64,000 nt of DNA from an uncultured delta proteobacterium (GCA_963847445.1 CAWJZV010000008.1:32001-96000); one strand, 5' to 3'. Positions 53,993 to 60,605 are shown, counted from the first letter of the stretch. A program made the numbers and translations. Notes: generated from the sequence alone by a model not told the origin.

Positions 53993-55007
53993 TTATTGCT
54001 TAGGCCCGCCGAAAATATTGCGGAACTGTTCGTAGTTTTTATTGAAGTCGTCGCCGGCGCTGAATTCGTCGATGACGAAAGTTAGTTTTTCCAAACCCTG
54101 GACGGTGGTCGGCACGGCGCGGCGAGTCGGTACCCGGCCAAAGGATGCGATGATTCTTTGTCCCTCTTCGGACAGCATGAAGTCGACGAAGAGTTTCGCC
54201 GCGTTCGGGTGCGGCGCCTTGGCGGCGACGCCGATCGGTTGGAACTTGGTGAAGACCGGATCCTGCGCCAGCCAATCCACCGGCGCGCCTTTGCGCTTGG
54301 CGTCCTCGGCGTTGTGAATGTAGGTGTTGAGCACCAGCGGAAACTCGCCGGCGGCGAGCAGGCCGGTGATGATCGTCAGCCCTGAATAAAGTTGAAACTC
54401 CTGAGCGCCGAGTTGCTTCATATAGGCCAAGCCTTTGTCCTGGCCCAGCCGTTTGAGCTTCCAGGAAAACCACTCGGGCTTGGTGTCGTCCATGCCGATC
54501 TTGCCGCGCCATTTCGGGTTGAGCAGATCGTCGTCGGCTCACCGGCACTTCGCTGCGCTTCACCATGCGGGTGTTGTAAGCGATGACGTTCGGCATCATG
54601 TAGATCGCCGCCCAAAACCCGTCGGCGTCGAAGAAACCTTTCTGCAACTGTTTGGTTTCGGGTGAAAGATATCTGGCCAACAGGTTTCTCTTCTTGAAAA
54701 AATAGGCTTGGGTCTCGGCGGACTGGACGACATCGAAGTCGAAGCGCCCGGCTTGGGTCTCGGTCATGATCTTGGTCAGCAGCCGTTCGCCGACGGCGCG
54801 AAACATGTGGACCTGCAGGAAAGGATACTTGACGCGAAAGGCATCGTTGAGCTTCTGCGCCTGGTCGACGGTCATCGAGGTGTAAAGGACGAGCGATCCT
54901 TCTTTCTTGGCCGCTTCGATCAGTGAGTCATGATTATTCGCGTTCAGCGGTGTTGCGAATAAAAGACACGATAAGACGCATAGCGCTAGGTGGCTGACTC
55001 TGTTCAT
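53993..55007 (-). CDS. Extracellular solute-binding protein (frameshift ~54540)
   Basis: AAKKEGSLVLYTS, YNTRMV, APHPNAAKLFVDFMLSEEGQ. Confidence 0.87.
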
Positions 55008-55101
55008 GGTTCTTGCCCCGATTGGAACTCGTGCCGGATACTATCAAGGCGTTAGCGAAAGGGTCAACCGCGTCGCCACGCGAAGTTTCCCCGCATGAAA
55101 C

Positions 55102-55130
55102 AAAAAAGGGATGCCGATGGGCATCCCTTT
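55102..55130 (-). terminator. Intrinsic terminator closing the boxB-like unit
   Basis: GGGATGCC-GATG-GGCATCCC stem with a T6 tract on the minus strand, 25 nt after the NuoF-like stop. Confidence 0.8.
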
Positions 55131-55155
55131 GATTAACCGGATCGAGTCTTATCCG

Positions 55156-56406
55156 TTAGGCCGTCGCGAGCAGCGCCTGGAAGTCGTCGGGGAAAAGCTT
55201 GAGGGCGCTTTCGATGGGCGGTCCGGGCATGGCGATCAAGTTACAGAAACCCTTGCCTTTGTTAAAAGCCAGCACCTTGCCGAACTGTTCAAGGATCGCC
55301 GCGTTACCCTGGCCTTGTTGAACTTTCTTCATCAGCATAGAAAGCGTGTTGGTCTCCATGCGGCAGGCGGCGCATTGGCCACAGGATTCGGCGGCAAAAA
55401 AGCCGGTGATGCGCACCAACTCGTCGACGATGGAATCGCCCTCGCGAACGATATGGACGACGCCGCAGCCGAGCATGGAACCGGCGTCGCGCATGGCGTT
55501 GGGTTCCAACGGCGTATCGATCTTGTCCGCCGGCAAGTAGGCGGATGACGGCGAGCCGGGCATGAGAGCTTTGATTTTCTTGCCATCTTTCAGGCCGCCG
55601 CCGCATTCTTCAATCAGATAGCGCAGCGGTGTGCCGAAGGGGAGCTCGTAGATGCCGGGTCTTTTTACCTCTTCGGTTTCGTTGAGGGCGAACAGCATGG
55701 TGCCGGGACAATCTTTGGTGCCGAAGCCGCGATACCAGTCGGCGCCTTTCAATAAAATGCGCGGTACGTTGGCCAGGGTCTCGACATTATTTACCGATGT
55801 CGGTTTGCCGAACAGGCCGACGGTGACCGGGAAGGGCGGTTTTTGCCGCGGCAGGGGCTGCTTGCCTTCGATCACTTCGAGCACGGCGGTGTCTTCGCCG
55901 GCAACATAGTTATGCGGCGCGGCGACGATCTCGATGTCGAGGTCGTAGCTGCTGCCCAGAATTTTTTCGCCCCAGTAGCCCGCCGTTCTGGCTTCGCCCA
56001 AAGCGTCGTTGACGCTTTTGATCGCCGCTTCGTACTTGGCGTTGATGTAAAGATAGGCCTTCGCCGCGCCGATGGCATAGGCGCCAAGGACTGCGCCTTC
56101 GATGACCAGATGGGGCAGGTTCTCCAACAGCACGCGGTCTTTGTGGCTGCCCGGTTCATCTTCGCCGCCATTCATCACCAAATAGCGCGGCAGCTCGGCA
56201 GCTTCGCGGGTAAACTGCCACTTTTTGCCGGTGGGGAACCCCGCCCCGCCATGGCCGCGCAGCCCGGCGTCGGAGATTATTTTAATTACATCGTCGGGGC
56301 TTCCCTTGAGGGCCTGGGTCAACGCTTCATATCCGCCGCGGGCCTGATACTCTTTCAGCCCTTCGCGGCCCTCGACCACGCCCTTGGGGAAAAGGATGCC
56401 TTCCAT
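55156..56406 (-). CDS. Stand-alone NuoF-like FMN/[4Fe-4S] NAD(P)H dehydrogenase subunit
   Basis: GLRGHGGAGFPTGKKW, EPGSHKDR, YVAGEDTA, NNVETLAN, SLBB region, ESCGQCAACR...C cluster ligands. Confidence 0.9.
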   Translation of the reverse strand: MEGILFPKGVVEGREGLKEYQARGGYEALTQALKGSPDDVIKIISDAGLRGHGGAGFPTGKKWQFTREAAELPRYLVMNGGEDEPGSHKDRVLLENLPHLVIEGAVLGAYAIGAAKAYLYINAKYEAAIKSVNDALGEARTAGYWGEKILGSSYDLDIEIVAAPHNYVAGEDTAVLEVIEGKQPLPRQKPPFPVTVGLFGKPTSVNNVETLANVPRILLKGADWYRGFGTKDCPGTMLFALNETEEVKRPGIYELPFGTPLRYLIEECGGGLKDGKKIKALMPGSPSSAYLPADKIDTPLEPNAMRDAGSMLGCGVVHIVREGDSIVDELVRITGFFAAESCGQCAACRMETNTLSMLMKKVQQGQGNAAILEQFGKVLAFNKGKGFCNLIAMPGPPIESALKLFPDDFQALLATA

Positions 56407-56409
56407 TGG

Positions 56410-56739
56410 TTAGAATACTCCAGTGTCGAGTAGTTGGTAGATCAATTCCTTCAACGACGAATCGATGGTGTCCAAGCGTTGCACATGGGGTGCGCCGGCG
56501 AGATGGGCGACGATGTCGTCGAGATCTTCGCTCTTGACGTGAGCGTACCAGTTTTTTTCAGGGTAGATCACAACATTGGGACCTTCCTGGCAGGCGCCAA
56601 AACACATGTAGGGTTTGACGTCGACATCGGTTAGCCCCTTGGCGGCAATTTTTTGTTGCAGTTCCGCCGCCAGCTGCTCCGATCCACGGGACTTACAATC
56701 GATATTCTGACAGACCAGACAGCTTTGGCTCACGGGCAT
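56410..56739 (-). CDS. Thioredoxin-like [2Fe-2S] ferredoxin (NuoE-like domain)
   Basis: C-x4-C (CQNIDC)...C-x3-C (CFGACQEGPNV.IYP); SD AAGGAG. Confidence 0.88.
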   Translation of the reverse strand: MPVSQSCLVCQNIDCKSRGSEQLAAELQQKIAAKGLTDVDVKPYMCFGACQEGPNVVIYPEKNWYAHVKSEDLDDIVAHLAGAPHVQRLDTIDSSLKELIYQLLDTGVF

Positions 56740-56812
56740 CTCCTTGGGGTTCTACTTACTAACGCTCGATTCGATATGCAACAGTTGATACGGCCAACAG
56801 CGACATGGCGAC

Positions 56813-57918
56813 TCAGTTCAACTGAATTTGCGAGACCCAGTCCTTGCCCTTGATGATTTCGGCGAGGATTTTTTCATCTTCGGCGTTGGGCAGAACTTCG
56901 TACAGGTGTTTCTGATAATCTTCGGTGCTGAGCAATTCGCCGGTGACGCTATAGGTCTTGCCGACATGCTCGCCGATGGAGCGGTTAAATTTTAGATCAG
57001 GCGCCTTCAGTTTGGCTTGGCCTTCCGGCACCAGCTGATTGAGCTGGTCGATCAGCTGTTGCGACTCGCTCATGTAATGTTCGCGGGCGAGATCGTTGAG
57101 TTTGTCTTTCTCCGCCGGCACGGTCGCGCATGTTCGTCGTAGCGGCCTTTGATACCCCAGGTATAGGCCCAATTCGCTGACGAGGAATGGTGGTGCCGAA
57201 CAGATCGTAGGCTGTGGAGAGCCATTTATTGAAATATTTTTGCACGATCGGCACGGGAATCTTTTGAGCTCTGAGTACTCGGGTCAGACCGGTGTGGCCG
57301 GTGAACATGTGAAAATGCTCTTCCTTGAGCATCGCCGTGACGCTTTCGGCAAGCGGGGCGAAGGATGAGTGGCTGAGCATGGTCAACTGATACTTGCCGT
57401 CGCGGTCGACAAATTCCGTGTAGGTGAAAAAGTCGAGCCAGTTGTTCACCGGCGCGTTGAAACGAGCCGAGCAGCCGGTCGCCGCGGAAAGCGCGGCGCT
57501 CGAGCATTTTACGCGCCTCAAGCTTGCCGGAGTCGCCAAAGTAGTTCACCAGCAGGTAACACATCTGCCAGCCATGGCGCATCTCTTCGCTGTTGACCCG
57601 AGTGAGCGCTTTGCGGTCGTATTCAGTGGGCGCGGTATCGAGCAGATTCTTTTGCTGTTCGACCGAGGCGAACTCGGTATCGCCCTGGTAGACGATCAGA
57701 TTCATTAGGGCGTCGCGGATCGATTGGTTGGGAATCTGGCCGACCCGCTGCCATTTCGGCTGACCTTGGAAGTCGCCAAACTCGATGTCAGGCGAGTGAA
57801 GCTCACCCAGCTTGGTTTCGAACTTGTAGTCGCCGAGCAGCGCCGCATCGTAGCCGATGTCTTTTTGCCATTGATGGAAATAGTCGATCCAGTCATCGAA
57901 GGTAGAGATTTTGATCAT
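56813..57918 (-). CDS. boxB: BoxB-like diiron aryl-CoA epoxidase, short form (indels ~57460, 57192, 57130)
   Basis: QGDTEFASVEQQ, TAP..YD, EEMRH, WLDFF...DRDGKYQL, F.PLA, EEHFH, DLFG, GIKGRYDE align with BoxB hallmark motifs. Confidence 0.8.
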
Positions 57919-57945
57919 GGACGGTCCTTTCGTCTTAAACAATTA

Positions 57946-57963
57946 TTCGAACGATCGTTCGAA
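57946..57963. promoter_or_regulatory. Perfect 18-bp palindromic operator upstream of the boxB-like gene
   Basis: TTCGAACGATCGTTCGAA, directly downstream of minus-strand TTGATT-N18-TATAAA. Confidence 0.72.
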
Positions 57964-58057
57964 CTTATTTATAACGCTTTGACATGGGAGAAATCAACTC
58001 GCCACCGGATCCGCTGATCACTAAGCCGCGGCAGTTTGGCACCATAAAGAGACCCAG

Positions 58058-60460
58058 TTAGCGGTACATTTCCAATAGCTCGACCATTTCAAGTTGGCGA
58101 ATTTGTTCAAACAAGATAGCGTTTGATTTCGCCGACAGTATCCATTCCGAGAACGATTTGGGCGGTCGTTTTGGCGGCTTGATAGCTGATCGAACGAATC
58201 GCTTTCTTGATCACGGGAAGATAAAGCGCCCCCATGCTGAACTCTTCCAGACCCATGCCAAGAAGCACCAGGGCGCAAAGCGGGTCGCCGGCCATCTCGC
58301 CGCACATGCTGACCCGCTTGCCGGCTTTCTTGCCGGCATCAATGGTGGCATTGAGCGCCGAGAGGACGGCGGGGTGCAACGGTTCATAAAGGTTGGCGAC
58401 TTTACGGTTGCTACGGTCAACGGCCAGGAGGTACTGGATAAGATCATTGGTACCGATGCTCAAAAAATCGACTTCGCGCAGAAAACGCTCAGCCAGCTGC
58501 ACGGCCGACGGGCACTTCGACCATGATCCCCAGCTCCATCTGCCGGTCGAACGGTGTGCCTTCCCGCTCTAATTCAACCTTGGCCTCGGCCAAAAGCTCT
58601 TTGACCTTTTGGATCTCTTCGAGACTGGAAATCATCGGCACCAACATGCGCACCGAGCCCAGATCGCCAACGCGCAATATAGCGCGCAGCTGGGTCTTGA
58701 AGATCTCTTCGACTTCTAAGGATATACGGATCGAACGCCAGCCCAAAAATGGATTGGGCTCGGTGGCGACGCTGCGCATGTAGCTGGGATATTTGTCGGC
58801 ACCGATGTCGAGGGTCCGAATGGTGACGGGTTTGTCCATCATGCCTTCGACAACGCGCTTATAGAGAGCGTATTGTTCTTCTTCGCTGGGAAAATCCCGG
58901 TGCGACAAGAACGGAATCTCGGTTCTGTAGAGGCCGATGCCCTGGGCGCCATGGAGATGGGCGAAGGCCACGTCGCTCAGCAGGCCGACGTTTGCGCACA
59001 GCGAGACCCGATGACCGTCGGTGGTTTCCGCCGGCAAGTCCTTGAGTTCGCCGAGTTCGCGGTTGAGCTCCGCATAGTCGCTTTTCAAACGATCGTATTC
59101 GCGAATAACCTCGGCGGTCGGATTGACATGCACGCTGCCGGCGTTGCCGTCGATGATCAATTGATCGCCCTGGTGCACCCGTTCCATCAGGTCTTCGACG
59201 GCAACGATGCTGGGAATTTCGAAGGACTTCGCCAATATCGAGGCGTGGGACGTGACGCCGCCGGTGGCCAAGATGATACCTCTGAATTTGTCACCTTCGA
59301 GCATGCTCAAGTCGGCGGGCGAGAGGTCCTGGGCGACCAGGATCGCGTCGTCGGGCACATCGTATTGTTGCCCATCACCGCCGGAAAGAGTTTCAAGCAA
59401 GCGTTGCGCGGCATCTTTAACATCGGCGGTTCGTTCACGCAGATAGTTGTTGTCGATCTTGGCGATGGATTCCAGGTAGCGCTCGAAGACCACCCGCACG
59501 GCATACTCCGCGATGAAGCCGCCTTTGCGAATCTGTTGCTCGATCTGGTGAATGATCTGCGGGTCTTCGAGGATCAACCGATAGACGTCGAAGATCGCTC
59601 CCTCTTCGGCGGAAATCAGCTCACTCATGCGCCGCTTAACGACGTTGATCTGGTCGATGCCGCGCTCCACGGCGCCGCGAAAGCGCTCGATTTCATGCTT
59701 GGGATTACGCGATTTTTTCTTTCTAATCGCGTTCAGTTCCATGCGCGGCTCGAGGACGAACGCGTGGCCGCGGCCAAAGCCGGGCGACGCCGCCAAGCCA
59801 GACAACCGGCCGCGCCATTTCTGCTTGGTTTTTGCCGACGTCTCCGGCGGCGTGCCTTCATAGGACGCGCAGCTTGCGCATGGCGTCATTCATGCGCTTC
59901 TGGTATTGCTTGCGCTCCTCTTCCTTGGAGCGCAGGTGGTCGCTGAGACGAGCCTGGAGGATGATGCTCGCCGCTTGTCCGGAAATCGTCGTCAAAAGCC
60001 GAATTTCATCGCGGGAAAACTCACGCCGGCGGGAAGTTTGTACGACGAGCACGCCTAATGGCGTTTTCTTCTCCAATAGCGGCACGCCGAGGAACGAGTG
60101 GAAATGTTCTTCGTGGGTTTCCGGAAAGTATTTGTAACGCTTGTGTGCCAGGGCGTCGACCACCATCACCGGCTTCATCTGCTCGATGACCAAACCGGTC
60201 AACCCTTCGCCTGTGGCCATGGACACTTTGCCGATGGACTCGGGGTCGAGGCCCATGGTCGCGACCAGGATCAAGCGATTTTTTTTGGCATCGAAAATAT
60301 ATAGCGAGCAGACTTCGGTCTGCATGCGTTCGGCGACGGTGGCGACCAGCCGATCCAGGGTCTCTTGCAGGTCGTGGGAATGGGTGATCAGCGTGCTGAT
60401 GTCCGCGAGTATGCCCAAGTGGGGATAGGTGGTGCGGGCGATCTTAGTGTTCTTGGCCAT
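58058..60460 (-). CDS. ptsP: GAF-domain PEP-protein phosphotransferase, EI-Ntr (indels ~59870, 58500, 58110)
   Basis: N-terminal GAF (EVCSLY, GEGLTGLV, SFLGVPL), TSH phospho-His, GLYRTE, RTLDIGADK, NPFLGWRSIR, SIGTNDLIQY, CGEMAGD. Confidence 0.93.
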
Positions 60461-60605
60461 GGTTGAAGATTAAAGACGAAGATAGAGTTTTCTATAAAAC
60501 ATAAATTTCACGGATTCGCCAGGCAGACTGCCGTTGTCGGTAGACGCCGTCTGTGCACGGACGGGCGAAACTACATTTTCACGCGCAGTATGCTATATTG
60601 CCGTC

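Follow-up and report, generated by a model that had tools for sequence, protein, structure and literature searches.

A short BoxB-family oxygenase gene in a conserved unit with genes for a thioredoxin-like ferredoxin and a NuoF-like flavoprotein, a putative new type of oxygenase reductase

Introduction

The electrons for diiron oxygenases usually come from reductases of the FNR or BoxA type. Here, we analyze a three-gene unit of a soil bacterium in which a gene for a short BoxB-family oxygenase is followed by genes for a ferredoxin and a NuoF-like protein, all co-oriented on the minus strand. The unit lies in a stretch of 64,000 nucleotides (nt) from an uncultured delta proteobacterium, and "the window" below means this whole stretch.

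The nearest solved system is BoxAB of Azoarcus evansii (BoxB structures 3per and 3pm5), whose oxygenase belongs to the same fold family and has the iron ligands and five of seven pocket residues in common with ours. As set out in the passages of PMC4498308 that deal with these enzymes, BoxB is monomeric with no structural subunit, and likewise no PaaC-like gene stands beside the window oxygenase. The same passages describe the reductase BoxA as an NADPH enzyme with flavin adenine dinucleotide and two [4Fe-4S] clusters (PMC4498308), whereas the locus studied here encodes a NuoF-like protein of the flavin mononucleotide (FMN)/[4Fe-4S] type and a [2Fe-2S] ferredoxin. The oxygenases also differ: BoxB has ∼470–475 amino acids (aa) versus 368 here, two residues of its pocket, F206 and T210, are replaced by Tyr and Val, and no boxC was found in this genome.

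A second described system, PaaABCE, shares with the window oxygenase the family PF05138, and offers a precedent for multicomponent diiron epoxidation of an aromatic coenzyme A (CoA) ester with a dedicated reductase. It is more distant, however, with an E value of 2.8e-8 for PaaA and a score of 43.7 bits on TIGR02156 against a cut-off of 280. Genes for PaaB, PaaC, and PaaD are absent beside the triad, and PaaE is of the phthalate-dioxygenase-reductase type, as classified in the relevant passage of PMC4498308, not of the NuoF type.

For the reductase part, the described relatives are NuoE/NuoF of complex I, NAD-linked formate dehydrogenase, NAD-reducing hydrogenase, and the bifurcating HydABC/NfnABC enzymes, which have in common with our proteins a full NuoF core (FMN, SLBB domain, and the four Cys of cluster N3) and a NuoE-type cluster domain. 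Unlike in the modules of complex I, HydABC, and NfnABC, the partner here is an oxygenase, and both the N-terminal half of NuoE and the terminal extensions of HydB and NfnB are missing. Free thioredoxin-like ferredoxins (Aquifex aeolicus Fdx4, 1f37, and the clostridial and Azotobacter proteins) are close in size, at 110 aa versus 109 here; unlike these, the window ferredoxin has an extra invariant tail, is encoded 3 nt from a NuoF-like gene, and scores far below the family cut-offs. By these comparisons, the system appears to belong to neither BoxAB nor PaaABCE, and its reductase would be a new type for an oxygenase.

The earlier note on this DNA had regarded a coupling of BoxB to a NuoF-type reductase as uncharacterized, and the literature agrees: a full-text search (main texts only, including few subscription journals) returned no paper on a BoxB/PaaA-type oxygenase coupled to a NuoF-type reductase. 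A SAR324 paper describes a ligase-BoxB-BoxC cluster and leaves NuoF unmentioned, and in the main text of a Binatota genome paper, none of the words benzoyl, aromatic, benzoate, and epoxidase occurs.

Results and discussion

A three-gene unit for a putative NADH-driven oxygenase

We lean toward reading the triad as an operon complete in itself, which encodes an NADH-driven diiron oxygenase of three components with a reductase of a new type. In such a system, the NuoF-like protein would take hydride from NAD(P)H onto FMN and pass single electrons to its own [4Fe-4S] cluster, and the thioredoxin-like [2Fe-2S] ferredoxin would ferry the electrons to the diiron center of the short BoxB. Once reduced, the diiron center would activate O2 and oxygenate a benzoyl-CoA-like aromatic CoA thioester, most likely by epoxidation of the ring. 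The NuoF-like protein and the ferredoxin would together take the place of BoxA. We infer from sequence comparisons which way and by what route the electrons flow, which nucleotide donates them, and what substrate and reaction are involved. The unit comprises the following features.

57968..57997, minus strand: promoter-like element, TTGATT (57997..57992), an 18-nt spacer, and TATAAA (57973..57968)
57946..57963, unstranded: putative palindromic operator TTCGAACGATCGTTCGAA, a perfect 18-bp palindrome in the interval between the -10 element and the ribosome-binding site
56813..57918, minus strand: gene for a short-form BoxB-family diiron oxygenase ("BoxBs"), 368 aa when read through, ATG at 57918, stop codon 56815..56813
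56410..56739, minus strand: gene for a 109-aa thioredoxin-like [2Fe-2S] ferredoxin (PF01257), coding 56739..56413, stop codon 56412..56410
55156..56406, minus strand: gene for a 416-aa NuoF-like FMN/[4Fe-4S] flavoprotein (PF01512, SLBB, PF10589), coding 56406..55159, stop codon 55158..55156
55105..55130, minus strand: intrinsic terminator, 25 nt past the NuoF-like stop codon

A ribosome-binding site lies between the palindrome and the oxygenase ATG (57918). The oxygenase and ferredoxin genes are 73 nt apart (56812..56740), and the ferredoxin and NuoF-like genes only 3 nt (56409..56407). This is the layout given in the earlier note, whose co-oriented genes and gaps we recovered in place; its BoxB-like gene, however, is not one open frame (see below). 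The flanking signals that the note had described, a promoter and an operator in front and a terminator behind, are also where it had put them. It had further remarked that no nuo, hydrogenase, or formate dehydrogenase gene is adjacent. The upstream neighbor is indeed ptsP (GAF and PEP-utilizing domains), and solute-binding proteins and a polysaccharide deacetylase are encoded downstream; neither in the window nor at the relatives' loci did we find a nuo, hydrogenase, formate dehydrogenase, NuoG, or membrane-arm gene near the triad.

Conservation of the triad

Since the window gene is frameshifted, all family-level work used an intact 368-aa homolog, P0001, and the window pieces were not joined. 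The oxygenase search of genomes yielded 80 loci that were kept, 30 at 70–92% identity to P0001, mostly labeled Binatia or "Deltaproteobacteria", and 50 at 57–63%, which make up a sister clade and are mostly from Acidobacteriota. The ferredoxin and NuoF-like genes followed directly downstream of the oxygenase in 28 of the 30 closer loci, and both exceptions are cut by a contig end (L036 stops at the oxygenase, L052 just past the ferredoxin). Gaps between ferredoxin and NuoF-like genes were mostly 3–9 nt across loci. A reverse search from the NuoF-like protein over 80 metagenome contigs (67–96% identity) gave the same picture, with the ferredoxin gene ≤60 nt upstream in 71 of 71 contigs with room for it, and the oxygenase gene upstream in 51 of 51. 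The other flanking genes vary over the 30 loci: ptsP is present in 20, a Leu/Phe-tRNA protein transferase gene in 13, and the deacetylase gene in 10. The triad is a fixed unit, and the neighborhood noticed at first in the window alone is thus conserved.

The sister clade differs. A full NuoF-like gene is missing from all 50 of its loci, and a ferredoxin gene is present at three of them (L070, L089, and L065). At L070, the ferredoxin gene is directly downstream of the oxygenase gene and no NuoF gene accompanies it, an arrangement that fits the ferredoxin as a direct partner of the oxygenase; at L089, it lies upstream on the opposite strand. In five Acidobacteriota genomes with a sister-clade oxygenase, NuoF proteins are only 40–42% identical to ours, and no ortholog of the ferredoxin was found (best match E 3.5e-7, 32% identity). 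With both orthologs absent there, the pair appears restricted to oxygenases of the Binatia-type clade, and those of the sister clade must have a different donor.

Two observations concern electron-transfer genes at sister-clade loci. L065 (9855–10918) carries a ferredoxin homolog (52% identical) together with NuoF-like fragments, among them a 137-aa open reading frame (ORF) with half of an NADH_4Fe-4S domain, which may represent either an eroded reductase or a noisy assembly. Convergent to the oxygenase gene in 5 of the 50 loci is a gene for a GlpC-like CCG-domain iron-sulfur protein (L099 8156–9424; also L065, L089, and L106); it scores 313.5 bits on the model for anaerobic glycerol-3-phosphate dehydrogenase subunit C and could be an alternative electron-transfer partner.

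One alternative is that the triad is held together by shared ancestry or regulation only, with the ferredoxin/NuoF-like pair reducing another acceptor and the oxygenase fed from elsewhere. A sample of the phylum contained a match in only 4 of 251 genomes, compared with 39 of 41 genomes searched in the window's own order, and among the genomes searched, the triad is confined to that order. NuoF-linked loci all come from this one order, and the five Acidobacteriota genomes without orthologs of the partners imply that the oxygenase family can use other donors. On the other hand, the triad is invariant in both directions of search (28 of 28 evaluable loci by the oxygenase, and every contig with room in reverse) while its flanks change. 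The genes are tightly spaced, with one promoter/operator region in front and one terminator behind, and the pair has no other conserved neighbor that could encode an acceptor. We consider this alternative highly improbable.

Control elements and RNA evidence

The terminator has an 11-bp stem with six GC pairs, a 4-nt loop, and a T-rich tail, and its fold has an energy of -24.3 kcal/mol (z = -2.8). A strict sigma-70 scan of the region did not call the promoter-like TTGATT-18-TATAAA, because the last (sixth) base of the -10 hexamer is A. Nevertheless, both hexamers and the palindrome recur before the orthologous oxygenase gene in most of the 30 relatives, with TTGATT or TTGACT and a TATA-rich -10 element at matching distance.

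The exact palindrome, TTCGAA-N6-TTCGAA, is found in the window and in 16 of the 30 relatives, one of whose loci is truncated at the contig start; most of the others have variants of the core CGAACGNTCGTTYG that differ at one to three bases. The operator core with its center occurs at this sole site in the 7.19-Mb genome. Likewise, CGAACGNTCGTTYG occurs a single time, at this operon, in each of five complete relatives; in one of them, G001, it lies 44 nt upstream of the oxygenase start. These comparisons indicate that the palindrome is a dedicated putative operator.

We also considered an SOS reading, in which the operator core CGAAC-N4-GTTCG would be a LexA box, whose consensus we take it to resemble. 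There are 17 such cores in the genome, and none stands before a recognizable repair gene; only the one at this operon has the GATC center and the TT/AA flanks. We rejected this reading on account of the positions of the cores away from repair genes and the single CGAACGNTCGTTYG site per relative, at the operon.

Metatranscriptome contigs from two runs of different studies align to all three genes with 90–99% likeness. One RNA-library contig covers 56275–56881, that is, the 5' end of the NuoF-like gene, the entire ferredoxin gene, the spacer, and the 3' end of the oxygenase gene, and another covers 56720–56998. The four runs compared provide contigs of related strains from other samples, and stretches that run X15 leaves uncovered (for example, 57137–57330) are uninformative. 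The RNA-library contigs give a weak hint of co-transcription of the triad.

Frameshifts in the window oxygenase gene

The BoxB-like region of the window is distributed over three frames, 57918..∼57460, ∼57459..∼57189, a short piece of ∼60 nt, and ∼57127..56816. Comparison with three relatives revealed a 1-nt insertion near 57459 and 1-nt deletions near 57188 and near 57127. In sequence, the pieces match P0001 with identities of 95%, 97%, and 87% (97% across the first 155 residues), with no stop codon and no decay inside the frames. The gene is intact, that is, free of stops, in 22 of 24 congeneric genomes at 82–99% identity (21 of 23 without the unpublished genome G265), and contigs from three other sequencing runs have the intact form at all three indel sites.

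The neighboring genes also have uncompensated 1-nt indels, two in ptsP (near 59866 and 58512) and one in the gene for the downstream binding protein (near 54538), giving about six across the 6 kb compared. The ptsP gene is split into three ORFs (60460..59861, 59889..58492, and 58502..58110), and the solute-binding protein gene downstream of the operon into two (55007..54042 and 54493..53996). Over positions 54000–60500, this amounts to about one uncompensated single-base indel per kb of coding sequence; gene calls genome-wide will be fragmented, which may also explain the completeness estimate of only 91.8%.

Could the frameshifts instead mark a true pseudogene of this strain, with the system dead and the ferredoxin and NuoF-like genes left as remnants or put to other use? 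All three uncompensated indels fall within the 1.1 kb of the oxygenase gene, whereas the two genes downstream, 1.6 kb together, have none. In addition, no run of the source sample was identified, and the best run shares only 39% of the sampled words with the source. However, ptsP and the downstream solute-binding protein gene are broken in like manner, so that about six indels in 6 kb look like assembly noise. The pieces are 87–97% identical to intact homologs without stops or decay, and relatives of the genus and the other runs retain the gene whole. Because the neighbors are broken alike, the pieces are so nearly identical, and relatives and other runs are intact, we reasoned that the three frameshifts are most likely sequencing or assembly errors; a dead system is improbable.

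A short form of the BoxB family

The window pieces match the benzo_boxB model TIGR03225 at profile positions 82–195, 191–256, and 353–440 in different frames, with 99.3, 72.8, and 31.3 bits. Among solved structures, BoxB (3per) is by far the nearest to P0001, with an E value of 7.7e-51. The middle piece also reaches PF05138, the PaaA/PaaC family of ferritin-like diiron proteins, with 28.7 bits against a gathering threshold of 28.5; the homolog at L088 scores 44.6 bits, and this domain is precomputed for nearly all of the full-length family matches listed.

We compared P0001 with BoxB at the residues named in the active-site passages of PMC5489048. All six diiron ligands (E120, E150, H153, D211, E240, and H243) are identical in the alignment and are invariant, or nearly so, across 44 aligned sequences. 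Of the seven residues that form the benzoyl pocket, five are identical in P0001, Q116, T119, S123, F193, and F203; the first of these, Gln116, hydrogen-bonds benzoyl-CoA in BoxB (PMC5489048). In those passages, F203 is named in one place and F206 in another, so we compared both positions.

The protein as a whole departs from BoxB. It scores well under the equivalog cut-off and, at its length of 368 aa, is without segments of BoxB that are specified below together with the other points of doubt; for these reasons, we judge from its sequence that it is not a BoxB ortholog. The label "BoxB-type" given to it in the earlier note therefore stands for the family, by the match to 3per and the full set of iron ligands, and fails for orthology, by the TIGR03225 score and the failure to find boxC.

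The short forms are a large group. At E ≤ 0.001, the family comprises 3,599 protein clusters (of 3,706 candidates), or 961 representatives at 50% clustering. The genome search found it in at least 596 species genomes, mostly of Binatia and Acidobacteriota. Among the 120 matches listed, most are 368 aa long and 88–97% identical, and several carry the source annotation benzoyl-CoA 2,3-dioxygenase component B. In a quick maximum-likelihood tree of 44 sequences, short forms stood apart from three of four canonical BoxB representatives; the remaining one, P0153, sits on a very long branch and could not be placed in this quick search. The 28 NuoF-linked oxygenases formed one clade in the same tree, with an approximate likelihood-ratio (SH-aLRT) support of 99.

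The genome encodes a second short BoxB-like paralog on contig C28 (43354–44455; L107 7354–8455), which is 46–48% identical to P0001 and frameshifted. It sits between PFK/GAPDH genes on one side and a bicupin gene, then genes for cytochrome c oxidase subunits I and III, on the other. Neither a ferredoxin nor a NuoF gene is beside it.

The ferredoxin and the NuoF-like protein

The ferredoxin matches PF01257 with an E value of 5.2e-9 and 36.5 bits over profile positions 68–144 of 145, and TIGR01958 over positions 72–147 of 148. It is therefore not a full two-part NuoE (36.5 bits versus a cut-off of 142.4); it corresponds to the cluster-binding half alone, and the N-terminal helical half is absent. 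Its cluster ligands, Cys10, Cys15, Cys46, and Cys50, have the NuoE-type spacing C-x4-C-x30-C-x3-C and are invariant in 30 ferredoxins. Among solved structures, it is nearest to 1f37, a free ferredoxin of Aquifex (9.5e-12), and to the N-terminal thioredoxin-like domain of HydB (7q4v_B, 9.9e-11), and the NCBIfam models fdxn_Clost and fdxn_Azotob gave 46.5 bits (cut-off 150) and 40.6 bits (cut-off 195). The C-terminal tail, residues 88–107, falls outside the alignment with the solved ferredoxin and includes 10 residues that are invariant in 30 sequences (L89, D93, L96, I100–D105, and G107); it could be a docking element.

The NuoF-like protein has PF01512 (1.1e-43), PF10589 (1e-15), and the SLBB domain PF10531 (8.4e-10), all above their cut-offs. 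On TIGR01959, it scores ∼411 bits (410.8–411.2) versus a cut-off of 558.65, which places it outside the NuoF equivalog. The [4Fe-4S] ligands Cys342, Cys345, Cys348, and Cys388 are of the N3 type and invariant in 29 sequences, and the glycine-rich FMN/NADH loops are present. Its nearest solved relatives are NfnB (9n5u, 2.4e-100), Thermus Nqo1 (3.3e-97), and HydB. It aligns with residues 128–523 of the 602-aa NfnB and 159–554 of the 626-aa HydB and with nothing beyond them; the thioredoxin-like domain is encoded as a separate gene, and the protein is thus not a HydB/NfnB-type fusion. The pair looks like a HydB/NfnB-type subunit, or a complex I entry module, cut down to the NuoF core and a detached thioredoxin-like protein.

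This architecture bears on the route of the electrons. In complex I, cluster N1a sits beside the flavin. By analogy, the three proteins here might form a stable complex in which the ferredoxin stays on NuoF as an off-path store, like N1a, and the diiron protein docks at the NuoG position to be fed by the [4Fe-4S] cluster. The Cys spacing of the ferredoxin and its Pfam and NCBIfam matches are of the NuoE type, the 3-nt gap suggests translational coupling of the ferredoxin and NuoF-like genes, and the invariant tail could serve for docking. Against this, the N-terminal half of NuoE has no counterpart in the ferredoxin, which among solved proteins is closest to a free ferredoxin, and L070 keeps the oxygenase and the ferredoxin without NuoF. 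We regard a store of this kind as unlikely, though well worth keeping in view, and continue with the ferredoxin as a proposed carrier between the NuoF-like protein and the oxygenase.

A paralog of the small ferredoxin, 60% identical, is encoded on contig C9 (165981–166301; L108 9981–10301), about 170 nt from the contig end. A BoxB-like gene was not found upstream of it.

boxA, boxC, and other NuoF genes in the genomes

A profile search of this genome for boxA gave a best score of 32.9 bits against a cut-off of 459.2, and none of the five complete relatives has a match above the cut-off; their best, at 27.9 bits, is a match to a ferredoxin motif. A boxC-like gene was not found in this genome either, where the best match had 50.2 bits against a cut-off of 712.3 (boxD was not searched). 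This bears on function, since according to PMC4498308, BoxB is purified together with BoxC, which is required to lift product inhibition.

The oxygenase-linked copy is not the only NuoF gene of the genome. A true nuoF is on contig C7, with 623 bits versus ∼411 for the oxygenase-linked copy, which is 38% identical to this respiratory NuoF, and a third, frameshifted copy is on contig C48. The same holds for the five complete relatives, with three NuoF-family genes each: a respiratory one (566–576 bits), the oxygenase-linked one (402–409 bits), and a third (372–389 bits). The earlier note had proposed that a NuoE/NuoF-type reductase works in place of BoxA. It had named conditions under which this would fail, and those open to computation (an unconserved neighborhood, a boxA that supports the activity, and a sole nuoF that groups with respiratory NuoF) each came out in favor of the proposal. 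The conservation of the triad, the failure to find boxA, and the separate nuoF genes thus support it, for an electron path that we infer.

We considered whether the third NuoF could be part of a Bam-type class II benzoyl-CoA reductase, an AOR-family gene lying 2 kb away; no dedicated class II search was made. We rejected this idea because the G001 copy, the one relative's locus that was read, is a fused NuoE-NuoF beside formate dehydrogenase alpha (748.8 bits versus a cut-off of 666.25). At this locus (L198 9538–16161; G001:3738538–3745161), a gene of the aldehyde:ferredoxin-oxidoreductase family is directly upstream of the fused NuoE-NuoF and formate dehydrogenase alpha genes, with MobA in front. 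It is an unusual neighbor for an NAD-linked formate dehydrogenase.

Meaning of the proposed chain

Tentatively, the NuoF-linked system would be the first oxygenase with a reductase derived from the entry module of complex I, and the so far unrecognized short BoxB family to which it belongs would dearomatize aryl-CoA esters aerobically without BoxA and BoxC. If true, the complex I entry module is used beyond respiration, hydrogenases, and formate dehydrogenases, and enzymologists would gain a compact chain from NADH to a diiron center. There is also a consequence for annotation. Pipelines label short BoxB genes as benzoyl-CoA dioxygenase component B, though BoxA and BoxC were not detected in the genomes tested. 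The clade is abundant in uncultured soil lineages, so its function and donor affect the aromatic-carbon turnover inferred from soil metagenomes.

Substrate and chemistry of the oxygenase

As the substrate, we consider benzoyl-CoA or a substituted aryl-CoA most likely, which is the weakest link in our reading. We base it on the BoxB pocket, which is largely kept, on the hydratase and reductase-like neighbors in the sister clade, on the presence of a ligase, and on the failure to find the B subunit of a class I reductase.

The neighbors in question are genes for an enoyl-CoA hydratase, co-directional with the oxygenase and no more than 300 nt from it in 15 of the 50 sister-clade loci, a 4-hydroxybenzoyl-CoA-reductase-like trio in 7 of 50, and an aldehyde dehydrogenase, TetR, and Mug-like gene in 8 of 50. 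Members of the trio score just under their cut-offs, with 977.9 bits versus 994.55 for the alpha subunit and 331.1 versus 404.55 and 167.4 versus 257.8 for the others. An example of the complete operon, found in some Acidobacteriota and other genomes, is as follows.

L088 3310–12836 (also L059, L082, L065, and L101): sister-clade operon in the order TetR, enoyl-CoA hydratase, aldehyde dehydrogenase, Mug-like protein, oxygenase, second hydratase, reductase-like trio

The second hydratase has cyclohexa-1,5-dienecarbonyl-CoA hydratase as its best match, and the Mug-like protein belongs to the uracil-DNA-glycosylase family. The operon seems to encode an aerobic route for hydroxybenzoyl-CoA or benzoyl-CoA that has yet to be described.

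A gene of the benzoate-CoA-ligase family scored above the cut-off in all five genomes searched (this genome, G000, and four complete relatives). In one relative, it stands between aldehyde dehydrogenase and xanthine-dehydrogenase-family genes, a neighborhood that is suggestive of aryl acid metabolism and is not linked to the triad. The B subunit of class I benzoyl-CoA reductase was above the cut-off in none of the five.

Several observations weigh against the reading of the triad as an operon for an NADH-driven aryl-CoA oxygenase. P0001 scores 236.5 bits on TIGR03225 against an equivalog cut-off of 499.1, and the protein is without ∼100 residues of BoxB, namely those at the N-terminus, in three internal segments, and in the C-terminal extension. 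At two positions of the ring lining, by the numbering in the passages of PMC5489048 used above, F206 is replaced by Tyr and T210 by Val (Val or Ile across the short forms), systematically in short forms. The search of this genome for boxC found no such gene, and neither a CoA ligase, a hydratase, nor an aldehyde dehydrogenase gene is beside the triad in any of the 30 closer loci, so there is no direct genomic pointer to the substrate in this clade. The oxygenase gene is frameshifted in this assembly, for which the best run has little more than a third of the words of the source. The RNA-library contigs stem from related strains, fall short of proof of a single transcript, and could reflect carried-over DNA. 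Finally, NuoF-linked loci are all in one order, so that their conservation is partly shared ancestry.

Some of these points also suggest that the same redox triad may carry out other chemistry, either on a substrate unlike benzoyl-CoA or by hydroxylation, desaturation, or deoxygenation, as a new activity of the PaaA/BoxB fold. A score far under the BoxB cut-off, a protein ∼100 residues shorter, the altered ring lining, the failure to find boxC, and the lack of pathway genes beside the triad would all suit such an activity. The C28 paralog likewise has a bicupin gene and genes of cytochrome oxidase and glycolysis as neighbors instead of aromatic genes, and many Acidobacteriota sister loci are near DUF5777, KAS III-like, and sensor kinase genes (22, 20, and 20 of 50, respectively) rather than aromatic ones. 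However, Gln116 and four other pocket residues named in PMC5489048 are kept across the short forms, the nearest solved relative is BoxB rather than PaaA (E 7.7e-51 versus 2.8e-8), enoyl-CoA hydratase genes flank 15 of the 50 sister genes, and 7 of the 50 belong to operons that contain the 4-hydroxybenzoyl-CoA-reductase-like genes. We therefore hold other chemistry to be doubtful and retain an aryl-CoA thioester as the probable substrate of the NuoF-linked oxygenase.

Two further gene families were noticed in these genomes. On contig C28 of G000 (87997–94136), a homolog of the B subunit of the benzoyl-CoA-reductase/2-hydroxyacyl-CoA-dehydratase family is present in three frameshifted pieces (56.5, 96.8, and 74.3 bits, under the cut-off); two crotonase-family genes are a few kb away, and the four complete relatives do not have the homolog. 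For the large subunit of molybdenum enzymes of the xanthine-dehydrogenase family, there were 29–41 matches in each of the complete Binatia-type relatives G001–G004 and 26 in the present genome, an unusually large expansion.

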